NCBI GenBank assembly: GCA_051880175.1
Contig: JBJENM010000162.1
Location: forward strand, 17,071 to 81,070
Source: Agathobacter sp.
Lineage (GTDB): Bacteria > Bacillota > Clostridia > Lachnospirales > Lachnospiraceae
Length of the DNA stretch: 64,000 nucleotides
Direction: 5' to 3'
Below, in pieces: positions 2,881 through 50,679 of this stretch (position 1 is the stretch's first letter; every line of letters starts with the position of its first letter). A model generated the notes under the pieces. The model was not told where the DNA came from and did not search any database. It saw nothing but the letters and a program-made list of their open reading frames with translations. The position numbers were made by a program, and so were the translations under genes.

Positions 2881-2970
2881 AATTCTCCTTCCCATTTGGG
2901 AAAGAGTACAAGCACACAGACTATTTTAACGACTTTTTACAACTATTACAAGTATATTTCATTTTTGTTT

Positions 2971-3011: not shown

Positions 3012-3035
3012 CCCAGTTCGTATCCATTCTGTTTA

Positions 3036-3215: not shown

Positions 3216-3224
3216 GTTTTATTT

Positions 3225-24878: not shown

Positions 24879-24890
24879 TTCTTTACCACC

Positions 24891-25451: not shown

Positions 25452-25578
25452 AGCAACTCTCCTTATATACAATTCTTTAGGGTTTTCTGAAAAGCTTCCC
25501 CACACTTTTCATGATGCGCGTATATTATAGCATATATAGTTCCAAATTCCTACATAAATCACGCTTTTTGCAGCCATA

Positions 25579-31832: not shown

Positions 31833-31971
31833 ACTTTTCCCTCCATTTTTTCTTCTTTCCTGAGGCTTATTATCGCTTACAAAATTTTGTAAGTAATAAT
31901 AAGCCCCAGGATGCAAAGCATCCGCACCCTGGGGTCCTATTACTTATCTAAATCACATCCAAACAGGATTT

Positions 31972-33939
31972 CTATTGAATGGAAAGGATATCAATGTAGC
32001 ACTCTTCACAGGTAATGAAGAAATGACATTCCTCACTGCCAAGTAAGTTGCTTGTTACAGTAGAGGTACTTGTCAAAGTGTTACCCTCACGGTCAACGAT
32101 TGTTGCGTCAACGGTAATTACATTTCCATCACGGGAAATCTCTAAGGTAACGTCTGCAGCCTTCATAGCAGAAAGCCATGTAGCCCAGTCATCACCCCAG
32201 CTGGTCTCATATGCAAATTCTGCATCTCCCCATCCATAGGCATCTGCACGAAGCATTGCATACTCAACATGGCTGTCAGAGATCGTATTGGGATCTACTC
32301 CTGCCTCATTCTTCTCATTGATAAATCCGATGACATAGTTATCCCAGTTGTTTACTCCGTCAGAGTAATTCTTTAACTGTACGGTCTTTGTTGCGCCATC
32401 TGCAAGCTCAGTAGTCTCTGACCAATCAGTCCACCATGCATTTGTAAAATCAACACTACCAACGGATGCAATTGCATTCTCATCCGGAACAATTACGATT
32501 GCATCCTTGATAGACTTAATCTCTACATATGAAGCCTCGTTTGTAAATAAGAAGTAGCATGGATCAGACTCGGTAAGAGCGGTATGAAGGATTGCTGTTG
32601 CGGTATTGTCTGTTCCATTGTAATCTACGAAATTGTAGTTGATGGTAAGATCGCTTCCGGAACGGTTAATGGTCATGGTAACATCGGAATCAACCATTAC
32701 AGAGGTTCTCCAGGTATCCCAGTTACCCCAGCTCCAGCTGTACTCACATTCCGTATCATTGTCGATACCCCAACTGAAGAGGTCTGCACGGGTTACAGCC
32801 CACTCCACATGCTTATCGGTTGCTACAGAGTTCGGATCTACATGAGCATCAGACGGCTCATTGGTAAATACAGTTACGAAGTTATCCCATGCATTGATAC
32901 CATCGGAATAATTCTTTAAAACGATTTCTTTTGTCTCGCCATCCTTGATTTCGGTGGTTGCTGTCCAGTCTGACCAGAAAGGTGCTGTAAGGTCTGTTGT
33001 ACCAAGGGTATATAATGCATCCTCAGAAGCTACAACCTCTACCACACGCTCCGGTTCCTCGTATGCTACAGTAGGATCACCCATCTGATAAAGTGCAAGG
33101 GCCTGACCTGGGGTAAGAGCCTGATCAAAGATGTAAAGCTCATCAAAAGCTCCCTTAAATACGGCATCCCAGTAATTGATACCAACAAGGAAATCGAAGT
33201 TGTCTGACTGTGCCATACATCCGTTTACTACGTTGATTGGAATAACATTTCCGTCAGAATCCTTCTCTACAACCTCCTCACCATTTACATAGAGGTTCGC
33301 TACAAGCATTGTTCCATCTGTACTTACGTTGTTTGCATCAACAACAAGAGTGATGTTCATCCACTCCTTTAAGTGCTCATCTGCCCCGCTTGGAGCCCAT
33401 GCCGGCCATAATCCGTCATCTGCCTGATCGTAAGCCCAGATACATGGGAAAGCTGCTCCGTCCTGGTTCCACTCAGCTCTTGTAATATTTAAGTAATGCT
33501 GATTTCCGGTTGCATCACCGTGTACATCCGGTCCGAACTGTACGGTTGGCATATAGTTTGCAAATCTGGTTGCATAAATCCAGAAGGAAACGGTATAGGT
33601 GTCTCCAACACCATTGACATCTGTAAGCTTAATACCGTTTACACCATTTGTGTAAATAGCCTCTCCCTTTACACCCGGAATATAGGTTTTTGCATCATCT
33701 GTAGTCTGTACGATCGGAGTAGCGCTACTATCCTGAACAGCTACCTTAATGCTGTCATTGTCATCTGCTTCATCGAATGAGTAATAGTATACAGGGGTAG
33801 GAATTTCCTCTGCGGTTGCTGCCTCGGTACTTTCTACCGGTGTCTCTGTTGTTGCAGCTTCTTCTTTTTTGCCACAGCCTGCAAGTAAGGTTACAGCCAT
33901 CGCTGTGCAAAGAAGTACACTAACGATTTTTTTCTTCAT
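31972..33939 (-). CDS. Surface lipoprotein with LamG-like domain and two Trp-rich repeats
   Basis: Lipobox LAGC; YTVSFWI..FKGAFDELYIFDQAL; duplicated W..W..KNYSDG.N.WDN..RAD..WG module. Confidence 0.8.
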   Translation of the reverse strand: MKKKIVSVLLCTAMAVTLLAGCGKKEEAATTETPVESTEAATAEEIPTPVYYYSFDEADDNDSIKVAVQDSSATPIVQTTDDAKTYIPGVKGEAIYTNGVNGIKLTDVNGVGDTYTVSFWIYATRFANYMPTVQFGPDVHGDATGNQHYLNITRAEWNQDGAAFPCIWAYDQADDGLWPAWAPSGADEHLKEWMNITLVVDANNVSTDGTMLVANLYVNGEEVVEKDSDGNVIPINVVNGCMAQSDNFDFLVGINYWDAVFKGAFDELYIFDQALTPGQALALYQMGDPTVAYEEPERVVEVVASEDALYTLGTTDLTAPFWSDWTATTEIKDGETKEIVLKNYSDGINAWDNFVTVFTNEPSDAHVDPNSVATDKHVEWAVTRADLFSWGIDNDTECEYSWSWGNWDTWRTSVMVDSDVTMTINRSGSDLTINYNFVDYNGTDNTATAILHTALTESDPCYFLFTNEASYVEIKSIKDAIVIVPDENAIASVGSVDFTNAWWTDWSETTELADGATKTVQLKNYSDGVNNWDNYVIGFINEKNEAGVDPNTISDSHVEYAMLRADAYGWGDAEFAYETSWGDDWATWLSAMKAADVTLEISRDGNVITVDATIVDREGNTLTSTSTVTSNLLGSEECHFFITCEECYIDILSIQ

Positions 33940-34019
33940 AATATTCTCCTTCTCTCTTTCCCTCCGGTTCTCTGCCGGAGGGCTCTTTTTTATTTATACA
34001 GGTTCTTTCCTGTTGGTCA

Positions 34020-35531
34020 CTAATTTGCAAATGAATCTACAACTGCTTGATACTGCGCAAGCTCTTCATCCGAAAGTACATTGTAGCCACTTGGTCCAAA
34101 GTAAGAGATCATTGCTTCTGCGTGATAGTAGTTTGCCTGCTCGGTAGCCTCTGCTGCATAGTCTGCTGCCTTTGCCTTTCCCTGATCTACAAGATCATGG
34201 ATACCGATATTGTTGAAGTACTGATCGCAGAAGTTCCAGTATCCGGCGATGGAATACCAGCCGTATGGTACCGGTCTTACGATAGATGCAAAGTAATCAT
34301 CCCAGTACTGTGCATGCTCTTCATCTGTTGGGAACAATGCACGGTATCTTGCCCAGACACCCTCATCCAAAGTCATCGGAACAGGCATGTTGGAATTCTT
34401 AAGTGGAACTCCTGATGCATTGGTAATGCTCTCATCCTCGTAGATATCCATACGGGCATTCCATCCATCAACCCCCCATCCCATGAACTTAAGAAGTAAG
34501 TAAGCTTCATAAGGATGCTCACAGGAGGTAGATACTCCACCGAGGTACATATTTGCGATAATATTGTGTTCCTTCTCATCTACAACATTTGGTGTTACAT
34601 AAGGAACGATGTCAAGACCATAGGTATCCTGATATCCTTCGGTTCCCCAAAGATTCATATAGGACCAGAAGCCCTCTGAGAATACCGCAACGTGTCCGGA
34701 TGCACCAAACCATGTACTCCAGTCTCCGGACCAGTCTTCCATTTCCTGTGTATTCTGCTGAGGTGCTACATATCCGGCAAGCTTAAGATCGGAGAATTCC
34801 TGCTCACCGATTGCCCAGTAAGAAAGGTCAAAATCGGTTCCGTCAAATCCAAACTCACCCTTGATTGCACGCTCTGCAGAAGAACATGCAGCGATTCCAT
34901 AAAGGGAATCCAGACGATTGTAGTATCCAAGTCCGAAATACTTCATTCCGGAACGGTCATCTACGGTTGCATCCTTGATCAGCTGAATCATCTCTTCCCA
35001 GGTCCAGTCTGTACGTGGCATTTCCAGATTTAACTTTTTGATTACATTCCTGTCAATGAATACTGCACTTGGCTGGAACCAGGTAGGCATTGCAAAACGT
35101 CTGTCGGTATCAAACTTACCGATTCCGTATTCCTCAACCGTTGCCATTAAATTTGCTGTCTCCGGGTCATTCTCTACATATTCTGTAATATCTGCCCAGT
35201 ACATATTTGCAAGTGCTGTGTCGGAGTCTGTTCCGGAAAATACATCCGGGAAGGTTCCTGCAGCAGCTGCTGCGGACAAGTCTGTGGACATGTCGCTGAT
35301 TACTTTTGTCTCGACAGTAATATTTGGATACTTCTCCATAAATGCTTCTGCCAAGAGATTGATAGTTGTCTCATCCTCATAATGCCAATAGGTAAGGGTA
35401 ATCTCTTCTGTTGTAACCCCATCTGAAGATGTTGCTGCGCTACCCTTTGATCCACCTGATGAACTTCCGCATGCGGTAAGTCCAACCACCATTGTAGCTA
35501 CAAGCAAAGCTGAAATTATTTTCTTTTTCAT
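34020..35531 (-). CDS. Carbohydrate ABC solute-binding lipoprotein
   Basis: Lipobox LTAC; FMEKYPNITV, PDVF, WTWEEM motifs. Confidence 0.9.
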   Translation of the reverse strand: MKKKIISALLVATMVVGLTACGSSSGGSKGSAATSSDGVTTEEITLTYWHYEDETTINLLAEAFMEKYPNITVETKVISDMSTDLSAAAAAGTFPDVFSGTDSDTALANMYWADITEYVENDPETANLMATVEEYGIGKFDTDRRFAMPTWFQPSAVFIDRNVIKKLNLEMPRTDWTWEEMIQLIKDATVDDRSGMKYFGLGYYNRLDSLYGIAACSSAERAIKGEFGFDGTDFDLSYWAIGEQEFSDLKLAGYVAPQQNTQEMEDWSGDWSTWFGASGHVAVFSEGFWSYMNLWGTEGYQDTYGLDIVPYVTPNVVDEKEHNIIANMYLGGVSTSCEHPYEAYLLLKFMGWGVDGWNARMDIYEDESITNASGVPLKNSNMPVPMTLDEGVWARYRALFPTDEEHAQYWDDYFASIVRPVPYGWYSIAGYWNFCDQYFNNIGIHDLVDQGKAKAADYAAEATEQANYYHAEAMISYFGPSGYNVLSDEELAQYQAVVDSFAN

Positions 35532-35592
35532 ACGCTCCTCCTTATTCTGTATGAATATATATCCGTCCCAAAAGGGATTGGAAACAATGTGG

Positions 35593-36600
35593 TTATTCTC
35601 CTGTGATACCTGCTCTGTCGATACTCTCGACGAACTGCTTCTGTAACACAAGATACATGATTAAAAGCGGTAGGATGGACAATGAGGTTGCTGCCATTCG
35701 GACAGATTCATTTAAGCTCGTTGCCACATCTCCGGTCTGTGCCTTTGAAGTGAAGGCCATATCAAAGTTCTTAAGCTGTACCACCAGGTTGGTCCAGACG
35801 CTTGAGGTCGAAAGACCCTGAACATATAATTCCGTCAGATAAGATTCATTCCAATACCATACAAACGAGAACAATGCTACCGTTACGATTGCCGGTATTG
35901 CGGAAGGTACCGCAATTCGAAGGAAACAGGTAAAATGCCCTGCTCCGTCGATGGTTGCCGCCTCTGTCAATACTTTTGGTACCTGCTTAAAGAACTGATA
36001 GAAAATCAGTATAAAAATCGGAGCATTCAGCCCGTTTCCTAAAAGAGCAGGAATCACGAAGGTCCAAAGCGTACCAAGAATTCCCATCTTGTTGTACAGC
36101 ACATAGGTCGGAATCATGGTTACCTGACTCGGAAGGATATAAGAAAAAATGAGGATTCCCATCATAATTTTCTTACCCTTAAACTCATATCTTGCAAAAC
36201 CATATCCAATCATCATACAGATGAAGATATTGCATAGGGTAGGAACTCCTGCGATAACGATTCCCTTAAAGAAGGAAGCCAAGAAATCCATAGAACCTGC
36301 TGCATCGATATAGTTCTGTATATAGAGGGTACTCGGAAGCCATTTTACGGAGGTATCTAAAAGATCATCTCTGTTCATAAAGCTTGTGCTTACCATATAA
36401 AGCACCGGATACAGATATACAAATCCGATACAGATCAAAAGCAAGTAGATGACGATCTGTTGTCCCGCGCCCTGCTTTTCCCGCGTTCCAAAGATAAACT
36501 TGTGAAGCTTTTCCTTGGTAAGCATTTTCTTAATAGTCTCCTGAGCCGTCATAGGTCTTGTAGCTGCGCTTTTTGCGCGCACGCTCGAGCTTCTTGACAT
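35593..36600 (-). CDS. Carbohydrate ABC permease (MalG-like)
   Basis: EAATIDGA loop; start after RBS AAGGAGG. Confidence 0.9.
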   Translation of the reverse strand: MSRSSSVRAKSAATRPMTAQETIKKMLTKEKLHKFIFGTREKQGAGQQIVIYLLLICIGFVYLYPVLYMVSTSFMNRDDLLDTSVKWLPSTLYIQNYIDAAGSMDFLASFFKGIVIAGVPTLCNIFICMMIGYGFARYEFKGKKIMMGILIFSYILPSQVTMIPTYVLYNKMGILGTLWTFVIPALLGNGLNAPIFILIFYQFFKQVPKVLTEAATIDGAGHFTCFLRIAVPSAIPAIVTVALFSFVWYWNESYLTELYVQGLSTSSVWTNLVVQLKNFDMAFTSKAQTGDVATSLNESVRMAATSLSILPLLIMYLVLQKQFVESIDRAGITGE

Positions 36601-37579
36601 TTCGTATTCCCCTCCTTTCAATCTTCTTTGCAAGTCTTGCTTCTTTTTCCAATTCTTTCTTTCGTTTCTTTGCAATTCTGTCATAGGCATCCTTCTTTGA
36701 TCCTAACAGAAGGAAGAATAACAGAACAATCAGGGTGATCACTATGGCATACATCCATGCCATTGCGGATGCATATCCGTATCCCTTTTCCTTGGTTCCG
36801 GAGAACATTGCGGACTTAATCATGTTGATCAGTTCGTTCTGCTCGTTGCTGGAAAGGAAAATGACGGTATATATTGCATTCAAAAGAATCATTGGCTTAA
36901 TGGTCGGAAGTGTGATCTTCCAAAAGCACTCCCATGCAGATCCTCCATCGATTTTTGCTGCTTCATACATGGATGGATCTACCTTCTGCAGAGCAGACAG
37001 GAAAATCAGAATCTGAACTCCGGAATACCATAAAATCATGATCATGTTGGAGAAAAGCTCTCCGATGGAAGTAGCAACACTGTAGGGAAGGAATGCATCA
37101 AGGGCATTTACCACCGACTGGGTATTCATTGCCGGAATACTGGATGCACCTTCACTGACCAGCATGTTCATTACCGGTCCGCTTACGATGATGACCGGAA
37201 GGAAGAAGATCAATCTAAAAAATCCCTTCAGATGAATCTTACTGTTGAGCATCATTGCAATAATCAGTGCAAACACTGTAATAACAGGGACCTCAACAAT
37301 CGTCTGCCATATGTAGGTTACCAGTTGTTGCGGAAACTCCGGATTTTCCAGCCAGATCTGTGTAAAGTTTCCGGTTCCCACAAAATTGAAGTTCGTTCCA
37401 AGAGGTGTGATTCTGATATTGAACCACATGTAGTAAAAGGACTGTCCCAATGGAATAAGGAGAAACATCAGTACTCCCACAATCCAGGGTGCAACGAACA
37501 AGTAACCGTATCTGGCCTCTTTCTTTTCCAGCTTTCCAAGCTTCACTTTTGGTTGTTTCTGCTTTTTTTCTTTGCTCAT
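36530..37579 (-). CDS. Carbohydrate ABC permease (MalF-like)
   Basis: YEAAKIDG loop; GYASAMAW. Confidence 0.9.
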   Translation of the reverse strand: MSKEKKQKQPKVKLGKLEKKEARYGYLFVAPWIVGVLMFLLIPLGQSFYYMWFNIRITPLGTNFNFVGTGNFTQIWLENPEFPQQLVTYIWQTIVEVPVITVFALIIAMMLNSKIHLKGFFRLIFFLPVIIVSGPVMNMLVSEGASSIPAMNTQSVVNALDAFLPYSVATSIGELFSNMIMILWYSGVQILIFLSALQKVDPSMYEAAKIDGGSAWECFWKITLPTIKPMILLNAIYTVIFLSSNEQNELINMIKSAMFSGTKEKGYGYASAMAWMYAIVITLIVLLFFLLLGSKKDAYDRIAKKRKKELEKEARLAKKIERRGIRNVKKLERARKKRSYKTYDGSGDY

Positions 37580-37582
37580 CTT

Positions 37583-39766
37583 CTATCTTACCTCATAAGA
37601 CATGGAAGCAATGGTAACGCCATCCACGGTCTGATCTGCTGCACTATAGTTTACATATACCTTAACTCCGTTGTCATAGGTAACTACTGTCACACCATTC
37701 TCACCGATTTCATGGCTCTTAATAAAGCTGCCTGCCACTTTTTCATTCAATGCCTTTAATGCATTTGTGTACTCAATGATTTCATTCCTGTACACATTGT
37801 ACTGCGAGCTGTAGATATCGCAGGAATTTGTATAAATAAGCTCTGAGGATTCCTCCTGGGTGATGTAGAAGGAAGGATAGGTTCCTGTCTCTACCATTTT
37901 TAAGAAGAACTCCTGCTTATTTGCCTCGAAATTCACATATTCGGAATATACCGGCATCACACCCTTTAATACGATGGACAGAAACGGTACGCTCTCATCC
38001 TCAATCACATAGCTGGAGGTGTACAGCGGCATATCCAAAAAGCTGTCGGTATTGCCCCACAGATAAGCAAATGGCTGTTCCATGATCAGATTGCTCTTCT
38101 CATCCACTGCCTGTATTGCTGTCTGATAGCTGTTGGCACAATCGGATCTGCTGTAAGTGGTTCCGCTATAGGTGTAAGAAAACAGATTGCTTGTAATTCC
38201 CGCCAGAGCAAGATTGTCGATTCCCTGCTTTGTATAGCTTGTTGTAAACCTCGAAAGCAGATCCCCCGATCTTTGTGGTGTCAGATAATTGAAGGTTTCA
38301 TATACATCCATATAGGTTTCCTTCTCATATCTTCTCTTGTTAATTTTCTTTACCACATTGAAGGTCGCATTATTCTCATCCGGGTTAATGATCAGTGCAT
38401 CATTGTATAAGTAAAAATCAATTCCCTTTTCCTTCGAATCATTGATTAAGGAGGTCAGCTCCTTGGTGCCTCCGATTTTGCTGTCTGCCTGATACTTTGT
38501 AATCGGGACATTGTAAAGACCTCCCTTCTGCCAGCCTTTGTAAACAGAAAGAATATCATTTACATCGGAAGCAGCCAGATCTTCATAAATGGAACGAATG
38601 TCATCCACTGTTGTCATAACAACTGCCTTCGTTCCCAGCAAAAAGCTTTCACGCTCGGTTCCCAAAAAATCAATTCTGGTGTTGTACTCGTCTTCCTTAA
38701 TGGAAATGAACTCATTGGAAAGAAGGTAATCCCGGTATGCATTAGCCATTCCTGCGTAGCTTGCCTCGTCCCCGGATAAAAAGATATAACGAACCGATAA
38801 ATCCGAATGGGTCCGGTCCGACTCTACCAGATGCAGGGAACCGGAGGTTGAGTTGTTACTGGTGGGCTGTGTGTAAAGCTTGCGCTCTATGAATTTTGCA
38901 TAGGCACGATTGTAATCCACACTGACACCGTTGGGACAAGCCTCAATGGAAGCTCTCATTGCGCCATCCTCTACGATTGCCAGGTATGCAAGCTCATCTT
39001 CGGTATGTGCTATACCAAATACCGGTGCCATAACCTTTTCCGCATCCGTGATCATGTTGTATCTGTCCCACAGCAGGGACTCTACCACAGACTCATCAAA
39101 TCCCACATCTGAACCATAGATCATTGCAGAGTATCCGCTTGCAAAACGGCCTTCCTTATCATCCAGATAAATCAGTGCTCCGTTTCCGTCCGGAATCAGG
39201 ATATATCCCTCTTTTTCATCCAGATAGGAGGTTCCCATATACGGATACATCGCGATGGTTCCGATGTAATAGTTCTCATTTTTTTCTACGATGGACTCAT
39301 CCGGAATTCTGGCAACCAGCCCCTCATCGGTAAGGCTGACTTCAAGTGTCATTCCAAAGCCGTATTTATTCCAGAAAAGCTCTGCCGAAAAACCATTCTC
39401 TGTATAGGTAATGTTTTTTGTCACATCATCATTAATCAGATCTGCCTGCTTTGTATCATCACTTCCGTTAATAATGGTCACAACAACCGCAGACTTCATT
39501 GCACCAAGCCAGGTGTCGTTATTCTTGCCGTCATCGTAGCTTATGGAGGATTCCATATAGGCTCCGGTTGCATTGTCCTCAATGACCAGTGACAAGTCAT
39601 CCTCATTGACATACATGGTATATTTCGAGCCTACCACCAGACTCTTATGCCCATTGATCGTTCCCGCAGCCTTTACCGTTTCCGGATTCACCGGTGAAAC
39701 GAACAGGCCAAGTGTAAGTACAAATGCAATTCCCGCGCTTAGGATTTTTTTCATTTTAAGAGCCAA
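37583..39766 (-). CDS. Secreted DUF5696-like protein
   Basis: Signal peptide; GYILIPDGNGALI, PVFGI, GWQKGG, VTYDNG..VYVNY; position between two permease pairs. Confidence 0.7.
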   Translation of the reverse strand: MALKMKKILSAGIAFVLTLGLFVSPVNPETVKAAGTINGHKSLVVGSKYTMYVNEDDLSLVIEDNATGAYMESSISYDDGKNNDTWLGAMKSAVVVTIINGSDDTKQADLINDDVTKNITYTENGFSAELFWNKYGFGMTLEVSLTDEGLVARIPDESIVEKNENYYIGTIAMYPYMGTSYLDEKEGYILIPDGNGALIYLDDKEGRFASGYSAMIYGSDVGFDESVVESLLWDRYNMITDAEKVMAPVFGIAHTEDELAYLAIVEDGAMRASIEACPNGVSVDYNRAYAKFIERKLYTQPTSNNSTSGSLHLVESDRTHSDLSVRYIFLSGDEASYAGMANAYRDYLLSNEFISIKEDEYNTRIDFLGTERESFLLGTKAVVMTTVDDIRSIYEDLAASDVNDILSVYKGWQKGGLYNVPITKYQADSKIGGTKELTSLINDSKEKGIDFYLYNDALIINPDENNATFNVVKKINKRRYEKETYMDVYETFNYLTPQRSGDLLSRFTTSYTKQGIDNLALAGITSNLFSYTYSGTTYSRSDCANSYQTAIQAVDEKSNLIMEQPFAYLWGNTDSFLDMPLYTSSYVIEDESVPFLSIVLKGVMPVYSEYVNFEANKQEFFLKMVETGTYPSFYITQEESSELIYTNSCDIYSSQYNVYRNEIIEYTNALKALNEKVAGSFIKSHEIGENGVTVVTYDNGVKVYVNYSAADQTVDGVTIASMSYEVR

Positions 39767-41816
39767 TTCGATACACCACCTCTCCGGCTATTGACTGTAA
39801 GAAATCAAATACCTGTGACCAAAGCACATAGAAAATAAAGAGCAGTAAACATACAATCAGGATTGTAAATAAGGTAAGTCCGATAATCTTGATTGTCTCT
39901 TTTACCGTATAGTTGTTGATTTCCATGATAGAGATGAAAATCAGTACTGCAATCCATGCAATCATGAAAAGCTGCGCGAACTCAACAAAGAAAATCTCGT
40001 TGTTGGTTACAACATGTGAAAGTACGAAAATAATCGGAGTAATCACAATGTATGGTGCCATGCTGTAAATGAAGGAGCAGTAAATATGCTTCAGCTTTCC
40101 TTCTCCGTCATTGATGGTACACATCAGATAATTACAGCCTACGACAAGAACCAGAATCACAAGGATCAGTCCGATATCCTTGATGATATCATAGCTTCCT
40201 TCTCTTACGGTCTTGGTCAAAAATCCGCAGAAATACTTGTTGACCACATACCAGATCATGGTAATGACAAGAAGAATATTTGCGGAGAGGGCAGAAACAC
40301 GGCCCTCCTTCTTAATTCCATAGCATCCGTCAATGGGGTGTCTCATGAAATAGAACATGTAGCCTATCTGCTTCATGTATTTCTTATTTCCAATCTTTTT
40401 AAAGAACGCCCTTGGCCCATCAAGAATTTTCTTTTTCTTATCCAAAATCTTAATGATCTTCTTAGCGACAAACAGAAGAATCAGGATGATTGCGATAGCT
40501 GTTAGATTTTTCTTCAGCCATTCGTTACGAATCTCCCAATAGGAATCGGAATATCCGTCGTAATCCTTAGCAAGCTTTGCATACTTTACAGCCAGCTCAT
40601 AATTTCCTTCCTTGTAATAAGCCTTTCCCATTGCCATGTTCGCATAGTCGAAGAGGTTGTTCATCTCCAGTACCTTTGACAATGGCTCTTTACTCTCCTC
40701 ATATCTTCCCTTTGAAAAGAGATATAAGGCCTCATGAAGATAATTCGTAAACTCCGTTGGCTCGTATACCTGAATCTGGGCTTTATCGGAATCTAAGACA
40801 TAAATGCGGTCCTCTTTGCTAATCTGAATTGCTTCAACCTTTGTAGAAAGACCGATTCTCTGCTGTCCGTCATCACTTCCTCCGAATACAAAAAGCAGCT
40901 CTCCTTCTTTGTTGTACTCGTAGATATAACCCATCTGGGAAGCAACGAAGATGTTGTCATGATTTCCAACTGCAACCGCAGCCGGCACATCCTCGTATGC
41001 ATCGTTGTCGTCGATCATGTTCACGCCGGCAATATTTAACTTCTTTAAGGTCTCATTTTGCTCACCACGGGTTACGGTATAAAGAAGTCCCTTTTCATCA
41101 ATTGCCATATTATCCGGAGTTGCCGGAATATTACTCTGCATCTTTGCTCTCTGGGCATCGGTAAGGACTGCTCTCCAGATGATGGTCCAAAGATTTGCAT
41201 TGGTGGAGTTCGTCCCGAAATATCCTAAGAAGGTACCGTTATCTACAGGACTGATCTCCACGATTCCATTGGTGTTGGACTCACATACCACATACATGGT
41301 TCCGGATTCGTTTACCACAATCTTAATCGGTAAGAAATCCTGTGTCTCACCATACATGGCTGCGGTAGGTCTGCCGTACTCCTGAATCAGATTCCCTTGT
41401 GCGTCAAACACGAAGATTTTATTGGCGTCACGGTCTGCCACATAGCAGGTGTGGTTGGAGGTTACATAAATTCCTCTCGGATTGACAAGCGTTTCCTCCC
41501 CGAAGGTAAAAAGCAGATTTGCTTCCATATCAGAAACAACGACCCGCTTGTTTCCGCTGTCTAATATGTACATCATTCCATCATCGAGGATTGTAAAATC
41601 GGTAGGTGCCAAAAGTGCTTCCTCTCCGATTTTTGTAATGGTCTCATATGGAAGATATGCCGTTTGTGTCTCTGTTACAGAGCCATAGCCATCCACCGTG
41701 TAGGTCTTGTAAGGAGCATCCGCCTTAACCGGAGTAAGGATCAAGGATGTTACAATTCCTACGGCAAAAAGGAAGGCCAAAACTTTTATGAAAAGTGTGT
41801 TCTTACTTTTTCTCAC
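39756..41816 (-). CDS. NHL beta-propeller + TPR + Yip1-like membrane protein
   Basis: NHL repeats (MYILDSGNKRVV, CYVAD..ANKI, IYVLDS), TPR-like helices, MRHPIDG then five TM helices. Confidence 0.78.
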   Translation of the reverse strand: MRKSKNTLFIKVLAFLFAVGIVTSLILTPVKADAPYKTYTVDGYGSVTETQTAYLPYETITKIGEEALLAPTDFTILDDGMMYILDSGNKRVVVSDMEANLLFTFGEETLVNPRGIYVTSNHTCYVADRDANKIFVFDAQGNLIQEYGRPTAAMYGETQDFLPIKIVVNESGTMYVVCESNTNGIVEISPVDNGTFLGYFGTNSTNANLWTIIWRAVLTDAQRAKMQSNIPATPDNMAIDEKGLLYTVTRGEQNETLKKLNIAGVNMIDDNDAYEDVPAAVAVGNHDNIFVASQMGYIYEYNKEGELLFVFGGSDDGQQRIGLSTKVEAIQISKEDRIYVLDSDKAQIQVYEPTEFTNYLHEALYLFSKGRYEESKEPLSKVLEMNNLFDYANMAMGKAYYKEGNYELAVKYAKLAKDYDGYSDSYWEIRNEWLKKNLTAIAIILILLFVAKKIIKILDKKKKILDGPRAFFKKIGNKKYMKQIGYMFYFMRHPIDGCYGIKKEGRVSALSANILLVITMIWYVVNKYFCGFLTKTVREGSYDIIKDIGLILVILVLVVGCNYLMCTINDGEGKLKHIYCSFIYSMAPYIVITPIIFVLSHVVTNNEIFFVEFAQLFMIAWIAVLIFISIMEINNYTVKETIKIIGLTLFTILIVCLLLFIFYVLWSQVFDFLQSIAGEVVYRIGS

Positions 41817-41834
41817 TGTCTTACCCTCTCATTT

Positions 41835-42713
41835 CTACTTGATACCGGAATGTGCCATGGTATTCATTACGTTCTTCTGTAACAGACAGAAGAGAATCAG
41901 ATTCGGCAGAAACATAATCAGTGAAGCGGCTGCCGAAATACCCTGACCGGCTACTGTATTCGTTGTTGTGGTACTGGTCAATGTGCTCATATAAAAAGCA
42001 AGGGTTTTCAATGAATCATCATTAATATAGTAGTTCGATGTCTCAAGATTCGTCCAAACCTGCTGGAATACAAGAATCGCAGCGGTGGCTATCGCCGGCT
42101 TGATCATCGGAATAATGATCTTAAAATAAATGCGAAATTCCGAAGCGCCGTCCATATACGCAGCTTCAATCAATGAATCCGGCACTTGATCCACGAACTG
42201 CTTGATCAGGAAAAGTCCTACCGGAAGTGCAATAAGCGGAAGAATTTCAGCCCAGTAAGTATCAATCATATGCAGCTTTTCCACTACTAAGTATCTCGGA
42301 ATCATAACCGCACAGGATACAAACATAAGAGCGATCTGATTGATCTGCATCATCATATTTCTTCCCTTGAATTTCAGCTTTGACAACGCATAGGCTGCCA
42401 TGGTCGAAAAAAGAAGGGAACCGAACACTACGGCTGCCGTGATAAACAAACTGTTAAATACATATTTGCTTAACGGGATTCCCGCACTTCTTGAAGCCTT
42501 GAACAGCTTTCTGAAGTTGTCTAAGGTCGGATGCAGTGTGATGAATTTCGGCGGAAAGGCAAACAGCTCTTCCATTGGCTTAAATGCATGGAAAATGATA
42601 AAAATGATCGGAAGTCCACACAAAAGCAGCATTGGTAATACAGCAAGAAAAATCTTAATCTGACTTTTCTCAAACTTGCTTGGGTTCATTCTGTGACCCT
42701 TATATGCAGCCAT
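41835..42713 (-). CDS. Carbohydrate ABC permease (MalG-like)
   Basis: IEAAYMDGA loop. Confidence 0.9.
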   Translation of the reverse strand: MAAYKGHRMNPSKFEKSQIKIFLAVLPMLLLCGLPIIFIIFHAFKPMEELFAFPPKFITLHPTLDNFRKLFKASRSAGIPLSKYVFNSLFITAAVVFGSLLFSTMAAYALSKLKFKGRNMMMQINQIALMFVSCAVMIPRYLVVEKLHMIDTYWAEILPLIALPVGLFLIKQFVDQVPDSLIEAAYMDGASEFRIYFKIIIPMIKPAIATAAILVFQQVWTNLETSNYYINDDSLKTLAFYMSTLTSTTTTNTVAGQGISAAASLIMFLPNLILFCLLQKNVMNTMAHSGIK

Positions 42714-42731
42714 TTCTTTTTCCTCCCTTCA

Positions 42732-43640
42732 TCAATCTTTTTCGCCAAACAGATTATTCGATATGGATGAGAATATCTGGACAATTAAAAGTAATACAAC
42801 GGATACTGCTGCCGCATATCCCATCTCATAACGGATGAATCCGTAATCCTCAATATGGTTTACAATCAGCTGTGCCGCATATCCCGGAGTCGGATTTCCC
42901 GCAAGTAATGTGGAAATCGTACCATTCTGGAACGCTCCGACAATCTGCATGACAGCCGCAAAAAGCATCTGTGGCTTCATACTCGGAATGGTTACATAAA
43001 TCATTTCCTGGAACCGGTTCTTAACGCCATCGATGGCGGCGGCCTCGTAAAGTTCTTCATCTACATTTAAAAGTCCTGCAAGGATTGACAAAAATCCGAT
43101 TCCCATACTGCTCCACAATCCGATGATGATGACGATTGGAAGCAGGTAATTGGTGTTTACCAGCCAGATGATCGGCTCATTTAAGACTCCGATATCCATA
43201 AGCCAGCTGTTGATGTAACCGGTCTGATCTCCGGTAAACATGATCTTCCAGAGAACCGTCATGGCAACACCGGTGGTCATACTGGGCGAATACAGGATGA
43301 GTGCACATATGGTTCTTGGCACCCTCGGAAGATTTGCAAGTGCCCAGGCCAGAAGAAAGGCTAAGACATATCCTCCGACACCCACAATCAATGCGTACTT
43401 TACCGTATTCGGAAGTACATATTTCATGAAGGTATCATCGCTTGTAATCAGGTTTATGTAATTTAAAAATCCCACAAACGTCGGTGTCTGAATCGCGTTA
43501 AAGCTGGTAAATGACAAAATAATTGCCATGACCACCGGCGCAAGTATAAATATTACAAACAGTAATGCATAAGGAAAAACAAACAAATATCCGGTTCTGT
43601 TCGAGCGGCCTGCCCTTCCTTTTTTCAGTAACTTACTCAT
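42732..43640 (-). CDS. Carbohydrate ABC permease (MalF-like)
   Basis: YEAAAIDG loop; MGYAAA. Confidence 0.9.
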
Positions 43641-43662
43641 TGCTTATCCCCTTCCAGGTCTT

Positions 43663-46635
43663 TTACTCTTTTTCCATAATCTCACGAACTTTATCAACCG
43701 ACGGAACCAGATATTCCTTTATCACATTTCCTTCGCTGTCAATATATCCGAATTCTTCCAGTTTTCGTCCGGTCTCCCGGTTAACGATTTTGACGACCTC
43801 ATCCACCCGGCTTCGAACGTCATCACCGTTTACCACAATATCATTAAATGCATTACTAAGTTCTCGCTCTGTCATGTAGCTTCCTAAAAGTCTCGGAGCC
43901 TCTAAGATGTACTCTGCCTGCTCCATGATGATATTCTTATCCTTTGTAGGATAAGGAAGCTGGGCAAAGGCTTCCAGATTTGCGGTTGGCCAGATATATT
44001 CATCTCCATACATAATCTGGAGCATCTGTCCGAATTCCGCCTGAACAGGAGTACTTGACCACCACTTCATGAATTCCCAGGCATCCTGCTCTCTCTGTTC
44101 GTTTGATTTGAACATAACCGTGCTCTCCGCACCGCCTGACATATAGCGGAGTACCTCTCCCGTCTCTTCATCCACCACGCCGGGAACCAAAGCGATGTCC
44201 CATGAATTTTCAATTTCCGGCGCTGCGTTTAAGATCAGGTTGTAGGAATTAAAGTCTGCGATTCCTATGGCAAGATCTCCATTTCTGAAATGCTGATAGA
44301 AGTTTGGAATATCCACCGGCAGATCATATAAGGTAAAGAGCTCTGTAAGCTCTGTAAAGCCTTCCACCGTTGCTTCCGAATCGATCAGAATGTCCTGGGC
44401 AGTGTCTCCGTACAAGGCTCCGCCATTCTGGAAAATAAGCGGGGATGTACCGTGGAAGTTTCTCATAACAAGCATGGCTGCAGTCGGATAATATACATTC
44501 AGACCTCTCATCTGAAGATCCGGCAGCATTCCGATGAGCTCATCCATGGTGTCCGGTGCTTCCAGTCCAAGCTTCTCCAAAATATCGGTACGGTAGAACA
44601 TAACATAGAAATTCATGGTCTCCGGAAGGGAATACATCCCGTCTCCGATTACGGAAGAAACCAAAAGTCCATCGCTGTATCTTCCAAACACTTCCTTGTA
44701 GTCCTCGAACTGCGTCAGGTCAACAAGGGCGCCTCTGATTCCAAGCTCGAAAGGAATGGAGTAATTAATTCCGGTTGCAATATCCGGGGTATCTCCGGAG
44801 GCATTGGAAAGAATCAGCTTATTTGCATCTGTCATAATTGCAAGGTCAACCTCAATTCCAGTCTGTGGGGTAAACTCCTCGTCGATCATCTTCTGCATGA
44901 TCTCAACATACTGACGCGGGCGGTTTACCCATACCTGGATGTGAGTCTCATCCGTGTTACTTGCGGAGTAAGACTGGCCGAAGAAGGAATAGAAAAACCG
45001 CTTGGCTGAAAGCCCCATGGAGGCAAACAGATTCAGCTTCTTCGGAAGACGCGCATCTTCCTGATACAGATAAATGCGGTCAATGGAGAGGTTGTTATCA
45101 TTAATCAGATCCACAAAGTTTGCGATCTGAGTATTGATCGAGTTTACACTGGTGGAAAGCTCATCTACCCGGTATACCAGCTCGTTGGGTTCTTCTGCCA
45201 GGGTCTCTAGCTGTTTTGCGGCAATCAGGAGATAGGAAAATGCTGCCACATCATCCGGCTCCTCTGCTCCTGTATATACCTGAGCCCTTTCTGCAATCTC
45301 ATAAAGCTGATTTACCCAGCCGTATAAACGATCCTGCACATCCGGAATATATCTTGTAAGCTTTAAATCCCTGTATTTATCCTTGTTGGTTCCGGCTACC
45401 TTAGTTACCTCAAGGGACAAATCGCTGATTCCACTCATAATTTCATCTACTGCTTCAAGGGCATATCTTAGATTATCCATGCTGATGGTCAGTGAAATAG
45501 TATGCTCACCCGGTTCCAAATAAACAGAAAGCTTATTATCCTCCGAATCCGTAAAGGTGGTTGTCTTGTATTTCGTGGTATACTCTACGGAATAGTTCAT
45601 AAATGCATCGTTGGGAACCTGTCCGTCAATCCGGATATCCAGAAATACCGGGAAATCACTTTTTTCCGATTGGCGGTAATTCATTCCAATATAGTAATAG
45701 CCCGCCTTCTCCACATTGTATTTATATGTAATGGTCTGTCCTGCGGTGGAGAAGGAATCTTCATCTACCACATTTAAGACAGTCTCTTTTGCTGAAAGCG
45801 GTTGGATTGCAGAGTCATATTCGCCGGTGGCATGAATGGAAGAATCATTTCTCTGATAGAAATTCTCGGCTTCAATGGTAATCAGCGCATCTCCCTGTGC
45901 AATACTGCTTCCGGTGTAGCCTTCAATTTTTTGTGGCGCAGATAAAGAAATATTTCCTAACAGGAATGTTCCCTCGCTTACGGTCATTTCAAAGGTATGT
46001 GTTCCTTTTTCCAATTGCAGCTTAAGGGGCATGGAGTATCGGTAGCTTGCGTCCATAAGCTTTTTGTGCTCCCACTGAATGCATTTATTCGGAAGCGTAA
46101 CCATCTCATTGCCGTATCGGTCGATGTCCGCTTTCTCATCGGAGATCCAGGTGGTCTCAAATTTTAAGTTACGGGCTTCATAAAACGGATACTCCCCATC
46201 CACCTTAAAGGAGAACTCAATCGGAAGAATCGATGTGTCGTAGGAGAGATAATCAAATCCCACCTCATAGAGAGCGGTCTGCGGAACATCTATGGTAAGA
46301 AGCACCACATCCGAATTGGTCACATCGCACACTGCATTTGCATAGCCATAATTGTCTGTTGAAAGAAGCGGCTCATTCTCTGCTGCAATATTGTCGTTGA
46401 TCGCATAAACCAGATCCGCGCCGGCATAGTCCGAAGCCGTATAGGTTTTGCTCACATTGGTATAATTGAACGTCAGTCGCTCTGTGCTGTAATTTACCTC
46501 TGCAGAGCCTGCGGCTGTCGGGCTCTCATTTCCCTCAGCATACACAACATCTGTGTTTCCAGTCCAACATGCAGAGAGCGCAAGTGCTGCGGCCATAATG
46601 ATTGCTGTAATTTTTGTAGCTTTCTTCCGTTTCAT
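43663..46635 (-). CDS. Large solute-binding protein with N-terminal CBM-like domains
   Basis: 990 aa; signal peptide; LQLEKGTHTF and YLEPGEHTISL CBM-like strands; C-terminal SBP (FTPQTGIEV, YSLPET, AWEFMKWW). Confidence 0.85.
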   Translation of the reverse strand: MKRKKATKITAIIMAAALALSACWTGNTDVVYAEGNESPTAAGSAEVNYSTERLTFNYTNVSKTYTASDYAGADLVYAINDNIAAENEPLLSTDNYGYANAVCDVTNSDVVLLTIDVPQTALYEVGFDYLSYDTSILPIEFSFKVDGEYPFYEARNLKFETTWISDEKADIDRYGNEMVTLPNKCIQWEHKKLMDASYRYSMPLKLQLEKGTHTFEMTVSEGTFLLGNISLSAPQKIEGYTGSSIAQGDALITIEAENFYQRNDSSIHATGEYDSAIQPLSAKETVLNVVDEDSFSTAGQTITYKYNVEKAGYYYIGMNYRQSEKSDFPVFLDIRIDGQVPNDAFMNYSVEYTTKYKTTTFTDSEDNKLSVYLEPGEHTISLTISMDNLRYALEAVDEIMSGISDLSLEVTKVAGTNKDKYRDLKLTRYIPDVQDRLYGWVNQLYEIAERAQVYTGAEEPDDVAAFSYLLIAAKQLETLAEEPNELVYRVDELSTSVNSINTQIANFVDLINDNNLSIDRIYLYQEDARLPKKLNLFASMGLSAKRFFYSFFGQSYSASNTDETHIQVWVNRPRQYVEIMQKMIDEEFTPQTGIEVDLAIMTDANKLILSNASGDTPDIATGINYSIPFELGIRGALVDLTQFEDYKEVFGRYSDGLLVSSVIGDGMYSLPETMNFYVMFYRTDILEKLGLEAPDTMDELIGMLPDLQMRGLNVYYPTAAMLVMRNFHGTSPLIFQNGGALYGDTAQDILIDSEATVEGFTELTELFTLYDLPVDIPNFYQHFRNGDLAIGIADFNSYNLILNAAPEIENSWDIALVPGVVDEETGEVLRYMSGGAESTVMFKSNEQREQDAWEFMKWWSSTPVQAEFGQMLQIMYGDEYIWPTANLEAFAQLPYPTKDKNIIMEQAEYILEAPRLLGSYMTERELSNAFNDIVVNGDDVRSRVDEVVKIVNRETGRKLEEFGYIDSEGNVIKEYLVPSVDKVREIMEKE

Positions 46636-46700: not shown

Positions 46701-46752
46701 TCTAAATTACTTTAGTTTTTTATATAATACTATCCATCCTATAAAAAGTCAA
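46701..46752 (-). promoter_or_regulatory. Promoter of the ABC operon plus candidate operator
   Basis: TTGACT-N17-TATTAT on the minus strand; TCTAAA-TTAC-TTTAGT at 46701-46716. Confidence 0.65.
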
Positions 46753-46865: not shown

Positions 46866-46895
46866 AAAAACGAGCAGAAAGTTCTGCTCGCTTTG
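46866..46895 (-). terminator. Terminator after GH51
   Basis: CGAGCAGAA/TTCTGCTCG stem with a U-tract on the minus strand. Confidence 0.75.
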
Positions 46896-46918: not shown

Positions 46919-49900
46919 CTAAAGTACTTTGGAAATTACCAATACATTAACAGAATTATCCGGCAGCATCAACTCAGAATAAGAAGAACCATCCTCATCC
47001 GTTCTGATTTCGGCTACCAGTTCCCTTGGCGTTATCCGCTCCTTTTCCTTTCGATTTACATTCGGCGTATGTACCAGCACCTTCTCTTCTGAGAAAAGAC
47101 TGATCCATTTTGCTCTTTTTACCGCCAGATCTTCATATCGAAGCTTCACCCGTTTGGCCACATCGGAAGGATTTACAAGCTTGATATACACAAAGCGTTC
47201 GTCCTCCGTTACAGAATGGAAGATGTCTCTGTTGTAAAATGCCAGTTTCGCATCAAAAGGAGCAAGTCTCGTTTCTTTGGAATTGCCGTAGAAGCCACGG
47301 ATTCTTTTTCCATCCTCCCCTCCAAAATCAATATGGGCCTGATAGTGCTCGTCGGCTTCCAATTCTTCCATATAAAAGCGTCTTAAATTTCCGGCATACA
47401 CGCTGCTTGAATAATCTCCCATGGTATATCCCTGTTTTCCAGCTTTATATACCTTAAGCCCGGTTCCCTCATCCTTCTTTCCGACGCAATATTCATGCAT
47501 GGTAATCCGGCTGCGGTCAAACCGCTTTTTATCCTTATCAAAAGGCTCTCCGGTTATTCCCACTGCAACAGAAAAGCTGCTTCCTTTCTCCCTACTCTTG
47601 ACCGCAACCTCCACGGAATAATCATGATTGTTTTCCTCTGAAAGCGGGATATAATATCCTCCTTCAAACCGGATGAGGTCTTCCTTTTGTATGTCAGTGA
47701 ATTTCTGTTCAAACAAAATGCTGTGATTCAGGTTGGAGATAACCGTAATCCTCTCGATTTCAATTCCTTCCTCCAGAAAGACTGCAACATCTCCCCGGGG
47801 AATCATCCTCTGCTTTTTCCCATCTACATAGGTCCGGTACTCGGTCTCCAGCAGTGAGTTTCCAAGATAGGTCGCAAACAGCTGCTGGACATAATAGTTT
47901 GGTGTCCGCCACACCTGACTGTCATCAAACCAGATTGCATCCGGAGTCCAGCGGTAGGTTCCGTCCGTACTTACCTTATTGAAAAGCGGCGCCGTCGCTG
48001 CTAAGCGCACCACATCGGAATTATTTTCAAAGCCGGTCATAACAGCAGCTTCTGCCACAGCTCCCGCCAGGGTATTTTTCTCACTGGAGGCATATTCTCC
48101 CACAAACACCTTTGAAACCTTATCTTCATTCAGCGTTCCGTTTTCATAGGGCCTGTAATAATAATTGTATCGGTCGGCGTTTTCCAGCAGATATTCATTG
48201 GAGCGGTAATAATGCTCATCCACAATGGTATCCAGATAATCCTTCCTGCGGGAATACCACTCTACATTTTCCTCCACGCTCTTCTTTCCGTCAGAAAAGG
48301 CAATGGTCTCTGGCTTTTCCCAGCCTCCGGCTAAAAATTTCCAGCCATTCTGATAGGCTTCATCATCCGCCTGAGCACCGGCGGTTGAAACAATCCAAAG
48401 CTTATATCCCGGATAGTTGATCTTCATATGACGGTCAATAGCCTCATAGAATTTTTCAAAATTGGCAAAAAATTCTGTTCCCCAGTTTTCATTTCCCACA
48501 CCAAGGTAATGGAGATCAAAGGGTGCCTCATGTCCCATGCTGCTACGGAGTGCTGCCCACTTATTTTTCTTTGTATCTGTGCTGATTGCAAAATCAATCA
48601 GATCGATAAAATTCTGAATATATTTTTCTCTCAGCTCTCCGCCTGCCGGATTGGCATAATCGCTTCGTGCCTGACAAAGCACTCCGCAGGCCATGACCGG
48701 AAGCGGTGTGGCTCCAAGATCCTCGGCAAGCTGAAAATACTCCATATATCCGAGTCCCATAGTCATGGTATAGCCCCATACGTTATAGTTTTCCTTACGG
48801 GTTTCGACAGGTCCCACCGAATCCTTCCAGTCATACACATTTTCCCATATATAGGAGCCTTCCGAAATACATCCCCCCGGAAACCGAAGGAAGCTTGGAT
48901 GCATGTCCTTAAGAGCCAGAACAAGATCCTTCCTTAGTCTGTAATTCTCATTTCCGAGATAATTTGCATGTGCACTGGCACTGCCTTCCTCTTCCCTAAC
49001 GCCCCAGACATTTTCCGGCATGAGGGAAAACATATCAAGCGCCATGTCTCCGATGCATCTGATCCGAAGCTGTCCGATTCCGCTGCCCTCTGCGGTCATA
49101 GGAGCAGCCTGATATTTCTTCCAGGTATCGCTCCCCTCTACCTCAATCGTGCATCTTCCGTAGACAAGGGTCTGGTCTTCATTTACCAGTTCTACTTCCA
49201 GCTTTGCTTTTTCTTTCGCCCTTGCCCAAACCGAAAAATAGTAGTTATTTTTTTCTGTTATCGGCATGGATGACTTTAAATTCTCGTCACAAAAGCCTCT
49301 GTTATAAAGAGTGGTTCCGTTTTCCACTTCGATATAATAGGCATTTGCATCCGGGTCCTCAAGCCCCAGAAAATCATGCAGACCCCCGGTGTTTTTTACC
49401 GTTACCCTTTCCAGATCTCCAAACCAGTACTTCAGCGGATTGTGATTGCGTCCGGTGGATTTTCCGTCTTTTCCGCTTCGAAGATCATAGGTATCAAAGG
49501 TAAACTCCTCAAAGGATCGGTTCTGAATCATCTCCGCGTAAATGCCTCCATCTGCGGAATGATTGATATCTTCAAAAAAAAGTCCGTACAAAGTCTTACT
49601 GATATCGAGGACCTTCTTTTTTCCATGTACCGTTATCTCGGCCTGTGCCATGCCCTCTGGCAAAATTGTAACCGGATAGGTACGTGTGTCTGTTTTTTCC
49701 CCGCAGCTAAGCTTTGCCAGAATTGTAGCTTTGATGGGAGCATCTACCTTTTTTAAAACCCCATCCTCTGTAACCGAATCTGCAGGAATACTCTTCCACT
49801 CCACCGAAACTCTTCCGTCCATAAGTGTCCTTGGAAAAGCCTGGTTCTCTGTCAAAATGTGAGGAATATCCGGCAAGAATTTTTCCTTTGCCATCTTAAG

Positions 49901-50626: not shown

Positions 50627-50679
50627 TCTCTTCTCCTCCATCTATTTCGCTTGATATTTCAATCATATTTCTTAGATTA

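Follow-up and report, generated by a model that had tools for sequence, protein, structure and literature searches.

Organisation of the locus

We report the analysis of an eight-gene cassette built around two pairs of ATP-binding cassette (ABC) permeases, found in a stretch of 64,000 nucleotides (the window) from Agathobacter sp. (assembly GCA_051880175.1, contig JBJENM010000162.1, positions 17,071 to 81,070 of the forward strand). The eight open reading frames (ORFs), all on the minus strand, encode in succession a giant solute-binding protein (SBP), a MalF-like and a MalG-like permease (F1 and G1), a membrane protein with NHL, TPR and Yip1 regions, a secreted DUF5696 protein, a second permease pair (F2 and G2) and an ordinary lipoprotein SBP (SBP2; Table 1). 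An earlier note on this DNA had described this order, with these domain labels and with no ATPase gene in the cassette. The ORF list and a Pfam scan bear out all three points, Pfam agreeing with each label, and the order is no product of chance, since it recurs in dozens of unrelated genomes. The cassette consists of two modules, A (the giant SBP and F1-G1) and B (the NHL-TPR-Yip1 protein, the DUF5696 protein, F2-G2 and usually an ordinary SBP), and the window holds one ordinary copy, the one linked to arabinan, of an arrangement widespread among bacteria that degrade plant fibre.

ABC importers of the CUT1 family couple their permeases to a shared MsmX/MalK ATPase, and the parts that define such an importer are present here twice over, as two SBPs of MalE fold and two MalF/MalG-type permease pairs with the EAA motif. 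Pfam assigns all four permeases to BPD_transp_1, and none has the MacB/FtsX-type membrane domain of the type VII ABC mechanotransducers. An ATPase is available in trans, two MalK-type (OB_MalK) genes lying on other contigs of the source genome, an assembly 69% complete in which one DUF5696 gene was found. With the starts of G2 and SBP2 corrected by ribosome-binding site to 36600 and 35531, the gaps between successive genes, from the giant SBP to SBP2, are 22, 18, 18, -11, 3, -71 and 61 bases.

Table 1. Positions in the window of the cassette genes, their neighbours and associated signals (aa, amino acids; GH, glycoside hydrolase family)
Feature	Position	Strand	Remarks
Giant SBP, module A	43663..46635	-	990 aa; Pfam, model, Foldseek and profile matches
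Permease F1 (MalF-like), module A	42732..43640	-	302 aa; EAA motif intact
Permease G1 (MalG-like), module A	41835..42713	-	292 aa; EAA motif intact
NHL-TPR-Yip1 protein, module B	39756..41816	-	686 aa; Pfam, hydropathy, complex prediction
DUF5696 protein, module B, secreted	37583..39766	-	727 aa; GH129-like fold; Ala522 at nucleophile position
Permease F2, module B	36530..37579	-	349 aa; EAA motif intact
Permease G2, module B	35593..36600	-	335 aa from likely start; EAA motif intact
SBP2, ordinary lipoprotein SBP	34020..35531	-	503 aa from likely start
GH51 arabinofuranosidase, N-terminal LamG domain	46919..50641	-	1240 aa; no signal peptide by hydropathy
Promoter-like site before giant SBP	46724..46752	-	10/12 consensus matches only
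Hairpin after SBP2, possible terminator	33960..33982	.	consensus match only
LamG-domain lipoprotein	31972..33939	-	655 aa; relatives at 6 further fetched loci of its clade
Surface-anchored GH43	29685..31916	-	closest to endo-arabinanase AbnB (295 bits; cut-off of 750 not reached)
Cytosolic GH43	28376..29350	-	324 aa
ArsR-like regulator	27477..28403	+	308 aa; recurrent beside arabinan cassettes
Cytosolic GH43, AbnB-like	25623..27071	-	482 aa; 311 bits (below the NCBIfam cut-off)

Conservation and modular structure of the cassette

Gene order was surveyed in two sets of loci. The set anchored on DUF5696 comprised 62 loci of some 20 kb each, drawn from 20 of the 21 non-self matches above the cut-off (61 relatives), from 40 of 50 in a 401-genome sample of the phylum, and from two plasmid records. 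The Yip1 gene lies directly upstream of DUF5696 at every one of these 62 loci and F2-G2 directly downstream at 60, the exceptions being one contig end and one three-gene insertion. Module A was found directly upstream at 37 loci and just downstream at four; the remaining 21 comprise five loci cut by contig ends, two with remnants of A, one from a genome that lacks A and 13 that carry B only, with A elsewhere in the genome. The second set was anchored on the giant SBP in species-representative genomes and holds the best 80 of at least 588 relatives (600 stretches), so that it leans towards the query; the matches listed include Lachnospiraceae, Ruminococcus albus 8, Evansella, Lederbergia, Paenibacillus, Cohnella, Anaerolineae, Izemoplasma, Acholeplasma and Salinispira. 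An NHL/Yip1 gene follows module A in 70 of the best 80 loci, five stop at a contig edge, and five, from Paenibacillus, have module B some 20 kb further down the same strand, past a set of pectin-degrading genes. The full seven-gene order can be read in 49 of the 80, the others being mostly truncated or frameshifted.

Within the 401-genome sample DUF5696 occurs in 34 genomes (19 genera; not independent observations), a giant SBP with its N-terminal region in 35, and both in 33. Two genomes appear to have A only; in these, and in a third with a cut giant SBP, module A sits on contigs of 3-4 kb that end inside the module, with no Yip1 domain, and because of this the missing B is likely, though not proven, to reflect gaps in the assemblies. 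The only genome in the sample with B but not A (G385, 100% complete) lacks both the giant N-terminal region and any F1-type permease. It was a condition of the earlier note that its proposal would fall if the two ABC sets worked independently and the accessory genes were dispensable and not conserved together; on the last point the survey finds the opposite, conservation together being nearly complete. What did not stand is a rigid eight-gene unit, in place of which we find two separable modules. An ordinary CUT1 importer is self-sufficient with one SBP and one permease pair and no further constant subunits, and genetically this does not describe the present case, in which F2-G2 are accompanied by Yip1 and DUF5696, and A by B.

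Some variants deserve mention. At the G385 locus (L065, 7133-16286) a gene of no recognised type, an HlyD-type adaptor and a MacB-type gene lie between DUF5696 and F2, possibly as a replacement motor. Four genomes carry stand-alone SBPs of 430 aa that resemble the giant's SBP domain, and were excluded from the counts of A; tandem copies of such proteins (L168, L169), close to the giant's binding domain (E ~1e-100), occur in a family that lacks the cassette, and are a possible source or offshoot. A MalK-type gene stands directly before the giant SBP at ten loci. A Paenibacillus cellulosilyticus plasmid (L024, NZ_CP054609.1, 6786-28409) carries a full cassette that has a UgpC-type ATPase of its own; after it come four LLM-class flavin-dependent oxidoreductases and two SBPs. 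As the annotated 32 kb contain no glycosidase, the cargo may not always be a plain glycan. In the Paenibacillus pectin loci (L150-L154) G2 is succeeded by two or three genes for lipoprotein-like products of some 240 aa; the three that were scanned had no Pfam match.

The giant SBP and permeases of module A

The giant SBP is modelled (predicted local distance difference test, pLDDT, 85.3) as a signal peptide, two beta-sandwiches resembling carbohydrate-binding modules (CBMs; residues ~56-385), a helical bundle (387-512), an amphipathic helix (536-552) and a MalE-like SBP domain (565-985), the Pfam matches to SBP_bac_8/1 covering residues 578-871 only. Foldseek matched the SBP domain to MalE-type proteins, its fold being an ordinary MalE one. 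For the N-terminal region no close solved structure came up, only distant folds. The sandwiches match profiles of glucanotransferase binding-module regions (E 1e-10), of an exo-glucosaminidase module (3e-5) and of family-6 modules, in a range from E 1e-10 to 1e-3. The label 'CBM-bearing', given to this protein when the locus was first described, therefore holds at the level of the fold, and binding of sugar is a prediction from the model and profiles.

F1 represents a distinct, highly conserved subfamily, its profile scoring cassette copies at 398-488 bits against at most 173 for ordinary permeases. All four EAA motifs are conserved across 84 cassettes, and invariant columns amount to 28% of F1 and 20% of G1, compared with 10% of F2 and 11% of G2.

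The accessory proteins of module B

The NHL-TPR-Yip1 protein matches the Pfam models for NHL (36.1 bits, cut-off 20) and Yip1 (34.6 bits, cut-off 28.6), with a weak TPR match below the cut-off, and reads as a signal peptide, an NHL propeller, a TPR stalk, one membrane helix and a five-helix Yip1 domain, the last defined by the PF04893 match and by five hydrophobic segments at 507-662 in the hydropathy profile. NHL and Yip1 are one fused gene in some lineages and two genes in others. A search for structures yielded distant folds only and no close solved structure, for this protein as for the DUF5696 protein.

The assignment to DUF5696 is secure (Pfam E 1.8e-177) and the model of the protein confident (pLDDT 88.6; predicted template-modelling score, pTM, 0.90). 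Over its whole length it resembles the GH129 enzymes ZgGH129 (5OPQ; E 4e-31, template-modelling (TM) scores 0.64/0.70) and NagBb (5WZN; TM 0.63/0.72), and likewise GH101, having the N-terminal beta domain and GH13-like barrel of the fold. The DUF5696 family profile finds the same GH129 entries, at E 1e-12 to 1e-9. The likeness ends there, however, with 12-13% identity, a score below the GH129 model PF11308, which matched nothing in the source genome, and a catalytic pair that is not conserved. We mapped Asp435 and Glu478 of NagBb, which we take to be the nucleophile and the acid/base respectively, using an alignment of NagBb with a genomic GH129 protein together with a comparison of profiles (probability 91%), so that the basis is sequence profiles and the register uncertain by one; they fall on DUF5696 columns 522 (or 523) and 563. 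An acidic residue stands at column 522 in 96 and at column 563 in 87 of 261 family sequences (a set without de-replication), and at both in just 11, a count that rises to 25 when column 523 is accepted too. The window protein has Ala522, Gly523 and Glu563, and so lacks the pairing of Asp nucleophile with Glu acid/base. Because both positions are so seldom acidic, the DUF5696 protein is, as judged from these alignments, likely to be a pseudo-glycosidase. One review describes the GH129 barrel as like those of GH13 and GH101 (PMC8106489).

By a crude rule, a lipobox is present in 55 of 68 copies of SBP2, in 10 of 84 giant SBPs, in eight of 84 DUF5696 proteins and in six of 65 fused NHL proteins (none of 19 split ones), signal-like segments being present in the last three proteins also. 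Secreted without an anchor, the DUF5696 protein would need a partner to remain at the surface. A search for longer DUF5696 forms gave no protein fused to another cassette gene, itself weak evidence; three proteins of 1,357-1,710 aa (P0001-P0003) have long helical insertions only. No relatives were found in viral contigs. The family comprises 1,914 to 4,197 clusters at 50% identity.

Division of labour between the modules

In the 68 complete cassettes with SBP2, mean identity falls from 54% in F1 and 49% in G1 through the giant SBP domain (43%), G2 (42%), F2 (40%), NHL (36%), Yip1 (32%) and DUF5696 (29%) to SBP2 (22%), the most variable part of the cassette. Substrate classes were assigned by Pfam to 57 cluster representatives of 542 flanking ORFs, the labels being spread by similarity and 60 loci staying unlabelled; the neighbouring enzymes point to loci for arabinan, xylan, mannan, beta-1,2-glucan, beta-1,3-glucan, galactan and pectin. 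When permease distance is held equal, SBP2 is 31% identical within classes and 22% between them, and SBP2 is likely to be the determinant of specificity. The corresponding values for the giant SBP domain are 51% and 46%. A purely substrate-blind F1-G1 found no support in a test for columns that switch with class, such columns making up 6.0% of F1 and 4.0% of G1 against 1.8% of F2 and 1.7% of G2, with class and descent confounded.

Module A also occurs as an orphan. Orthologous orphans, 77-85% identical, were found in three genomes of one family (L156, L161, L166), which also hold B-only cassettes beside different glycosidases. In the one of these genomes that is annotated, genes for peptidases, a patatin, a sigma factor and a ribonucleotide reductase neighbour the orphan, and one for a pectinesterase lies 5 kb from it. 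One genome (G110) combines three A+B cassettes, three B-only cassettes and one orphan A; in another (G353) one A and one B were found, apart. One A serving several B cassettes would resemble, by analogy, the sharing of MsmX.

Arabinan had been named as the substrate at the window locus on the strength of the flanking GH51 and GH43 genes, and the comparison of relatives supports this: arabinan genes lie in the fetched flank of 19 of the 22 nearest cassettes (SBP2 at least 30% identical; the other three are unlabelled), as against two of 44 more distant ones, two loci common to both anchor sets being counted once. The substrate is thus quite probably arabinan or arabinan-rich side chains of pectin. 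Import of the whole polymer was considered and set aside, most flanking endo-enzymes having signal peptides by a crude hydropathy rule.

Evidence for a physical link

Partial correlations of divergence rank the known partners first (F1-G1 0.48, F2-G2 0.31), ahead of cross-module pairs at 0.17-0.21; the pairs are not independent and the correlations served solely to choose a complex prediction, that of TPR-Yip1 against F1 and G1, run as three chains with 75-row alignments. It scored 0.34 (runs of 0.34, 0.31 and 0.40), with contact agreement of at least 78% and partner pLDDT of at least 73, and three controls, one with F1 replaced, scored 0.00. In calibration, 116 of 157 solved complexes attained the mark, as did two of 215 mismatches, although scores of 0.60 or less account for just 18 of these solved complexes and for both mismatches, and the counts are only roughly valid for a three-chain job. 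No solved complex of the TPR-Yip1 or permease families was found as a template.

The idea of one physical complex, put forward in the earlier note, thereby gains weak support for one predicted contact, between TPR-Yip1 and F1-G1; the complex as a whole is unproven. The prediction raises, weakly and without settling it, the claim that a B protein touches A, and on balance we rather favour some stable contact between the modules.

Relation to known systems

In its working the cassette resembles a CUT1 importer that has additional constant subunits; it is not a Sus system. With CUT1 oligosaccharide importers that use a shared MsmX/MalK, such as that of the Blautia producta mixed-linkage glucan locus (an ordinary three-gene importer; PMC10318527), it has in common the MalE-fold SBP, MalF/G-type permeases with the EAA motif, an ATPase in trans, and flanking surface endo-enzymes with cytosolic exo-enzymes. 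It differs in that those importers have one SBP and one permease set, lack Yip1, propeller and pseudo-enzyme subunits, and usually carry cargo with a degree of polymerisation (DP) of 2-7 (PMC13543919). The Bacteroidota SusCD utilisome, to which the cassette had been compared, unites capture proteins and a transporter as one unit for long oligosaccharides (~DP15; PMC13543919), and the comparison is a functional analogy only. It does not extend to homology: no part is homologous to SusC or SusD, there being no TonB-dependent barrel and no SusD among the eight proteins, and the cassette belongs to the cytoplasmic membrane and is ATP-driven.

The same eight-gene order heads the xylan locus of Caldicellulosiruptor (Anaerocellum) bescii, xloEFG-X-GH129-axoFGE (Athe_0174-0181; PMC8579813; PMC3082886), a likeness that is drawn from the annotation in the papers and not from alignment of the named sequences. 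There it is listed as two CUT1 importers with a gene of no assigned role and an enzyme between them, xylan-induced and sharing the MsmK ATPase (Rodionov 2021, PMC8579813). Dam 2011 (PMC3082886) describes Cbes_0174 as a CBM-SBP of 951 aa and calls Cbes_0178 a conserved hypothetical protein; by annotation Athe_0177 is an NHL protein and Athe_0178 a putative GH129. XynR binds upstream of this locus (PMC12285236), and synergy of Athe_0181 with a hydrolase is cited in a review (PMC10492685). The locus differs from ours in serving xylan and not arabinan, and the sections of these papers that treat it give neither a mechanism nor a family-wide view.

The cassette order is also drawn, in Fig. S1 of Kato 2026 (PMC13731917; PDB 22HH-22HL), for the beta-1,2-glucan cluster Chy400_4166-4173 of Chloroflexus aurantiacus. 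Its ordinary SBP, Chy400_4166, binds linear and cyclic glucans of DP17-20 in endo mode, transport not being demonstrated there, and the adjoining SBP, Chy400_4167, gave no gel shift (PMC13731917). In this cluster SBP2 precedes the giant SBP; the ordinary SBP of a Chloroflexota cassette (L108) matches 22HH at 690 bits, whereas window SBP2, for which 22HH is also the best PDB match, is distant (E 3e-9). The ordinary SBP alone is characterised in that work, as far as its text and supplement on the cluster go, and the accessory genes are left as unknown.

No mechanistic description was known to the author of the earlier note, and our literature searches too found none of the cassette as one unit, though there may be more in the supplements of papers and preprints and in articles behind a subscription. 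The gene order itself is nevertheless in print twice, in the C. bescii xylan locus and in C. aurantiacus, both times read as separate, independent importers. A term search of a 2026 review of glycoside transporters found no mention of NHL, Yip or DUF5696 in the text covered (PMC13543919), and DUF5696 gave no main-text matches in the literature, yet is named in the supplement of Kato 2026 (PMC13731917).

Proposed mechanism and alternative explanations

Our preferred reading, to which we give a probability of roughly one half, is that the two type I ABC permease pairs and their accessory proteins form one membrane complex importing long arabinan fragments, with B as the substrate-specific importer and A as a shared, ATP-driven helper. 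The surface GH43, to judge by its family and signal peptide, would cut arabinan into long fragments, which SBP2 would grip in mid-chain, as the Chloroflexus counterpart does with glucans. The DUF5696 pseudo-enzyme, with its computed fold and lost catalytic pair, may be held by the NHL propeller and guide the chain to F2-G2, while TPR-Yip1, in a weakly predicted contact, would pack on F1-G1 and tie A to B. More speculatively, the giant SBP cycling on F1-G1 could swing its CBM-like arm and so feed or ratchet the chain. A common MsmX/MalK ATPase would energise both pairs, a coupling suggested by CUT1 biology and consistent with the EAA motifs and ATPase genes, and the cytosolic GH51 and GH43 enzymes would presumably complete the breakdown.

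Several observations weigh against this reading. The evidence for a single complex is computational, and the complex prediction was a weak pass for membrane domains with custom alignments, in a three-chain job unlike the calibration. Adjacency is not obligatory, A and B lying 20 kb apart or on separate contigs, and the complete genome G385 carries B without A. The giant SBP domain follows substrate class to some extent and the class-specific columns are commoner in F1-G1 than in F2-G2, and the ratio of SBP to permease divergence comes from the cassettes alone. The negative result for Chy400_4167 was reported as 'data not shown', from a gel shift that misses oligosaccharide binders, and only its position identifies the protein with the giant SBP. 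Most cassettes have surface endo-enzymes beside them, which makes whole-polymer uptake unnecessary, and the L-arabinose isomerase AraA was not found in the 69%-complete source genome.

Of the alternatives, the strongest, though on present evidence unlikely, is that these are two working importers whose cargoes complement each other (B taking, for instance, long or branched fragments and A short ones), each capable by itself, selected together and perhaps clustered by the Yip1 scaffold. The EAA motif kept in all four permeases, the ordinary MalE fold of a giant SBP domain that partly follows substrate class, and the annotation of both published loci (PMC8579813; PMC13731917) all fit such an arrangement. 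It sits less well with an orphan A among housekeeping genes, without enzymes of its own to make cargo, in genomes whose B-only cassettes differ in their enzymes, or with the failure of Chy400_4167 to bind (PMC13731917); and so nearly complete a co-occurrence of the two modules within genomes, over at least seven substrate classes, is unexpected for independent importers. That module A moves no sugar and is an ATP-driven sensor or mechanical unit, which clears a way across the cell wall, or acts as a gate on B, when the arm contacts polysaccharide, is improbable. The unusual invariance of F1-G1 would suit it, as would the HlyD-type and MacB-type genes inserted in the B cassette of G385, but the insertion is confined to that one genome, F1-G1 are type I permeases and not MacB/FtsX folds, and no wall hydrolase or regulator is a constant neighbour.

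More improbable still, and already disfavoured, is the view that nothing but a common promoter joins two importers that are unrelated, a secreted and active glycosidase of GH129 type and an adhesin. In C. bescii the genes are indeed co-transcribed and xylan-induced, and the gene in the DUF5696 position is annotated as a putative GH129 (PMC8579813); the window protein, too, keeps Glu563 at the acid/base position. Yet the catalytic pair is rare in the family and is replaced in the window protein by Ala522/Gly523 at the nucleophile position, one enzyme family cannot serve all of the substrates listed, and the order is fixed, with modules that co-occur even when apart.

As an extension of the single-complex reading, we suggest only tentatively that the cassette represents a class of ABC importer not described before. 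This would be a supercomplex with twin pores, its Yip1 scaffold linking a substrate-specific pore to a generic, ATP-driven motor that several cassettes can share, while a dead GH129-like barrel would thread glycans of at least 15-20 units into the cell; it would be the monoderm counterpart of the SusCD utilisome, in thousands of lineages.

How Gram-positive bacteria of the gut, rumen and hot springs, which have no outer-membrane Sus system, manage to capture long glycans is still to be explained, and the cassette that bears on it is common and stands beside enzymes for a wide range of polysaccharides. A genetically tractable organism, C. bescii, has a copy, which provides named genes for direct tests, and a testable function is now available for a large DUF and for bacterial Yip1 domains; were the twin-pore proposal true, it would be the first role for a bacterial Yip1 domain that our searches met. 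On genes in the DUF5696 position a 'GH129' label is probably a mistake. Should A be a shared helper, the engineering of transport in biomass-degrading strains will have to transfer the two modules together.

Flanking genes and minor observations

The LamG lipoprotein (31972-33939, minus strand) has a repeated C-terminal domain and is a candidate surface glycan-binding protein. Its neighbour, the surface GH43 (29685-31916, minus strand), has a signal peptide, an extra domain and a hydrophobic-basic-hydrophobic segment ahead of the catalytic domain, and looks like two fused surface proteins. An ArsR-family regulator, ArbA, is described beside an arabinofuranosidase gene (PMC8579813).

A hairpin at 46867-46894 lies 3' of the GH51 gene, and the promoter-like site before the giant SBP comes just after it; with 29 such sites found against 42.8 expected by shuffling, a single site is weak by itself. 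An AATCTAA box upstream of several genes was dropped as being at chance level (14 found, 16.1 expected). RNA libraries from two runs gave only contigs of less than 400 bases on the cassette, with small word shares, and show neither a transcript nor a habitat.

Elsewhere in the window, what is presumably a sensor-domain adenylate/guanylate cyclase-like gene (22842-25505, minus strand, by its motifs) stands beside one for a cyclic-nucleotide-binding protein. By eye, a 123-aa ORF (55901-56272, minus strand) has the look of a RelE/ParE-type protein without an obvious partner, and a 1011-aa protein (57763-60798, minus strand) shows a TIR-like N-terminus, a membrane segment and beta-propeller-like repeats.

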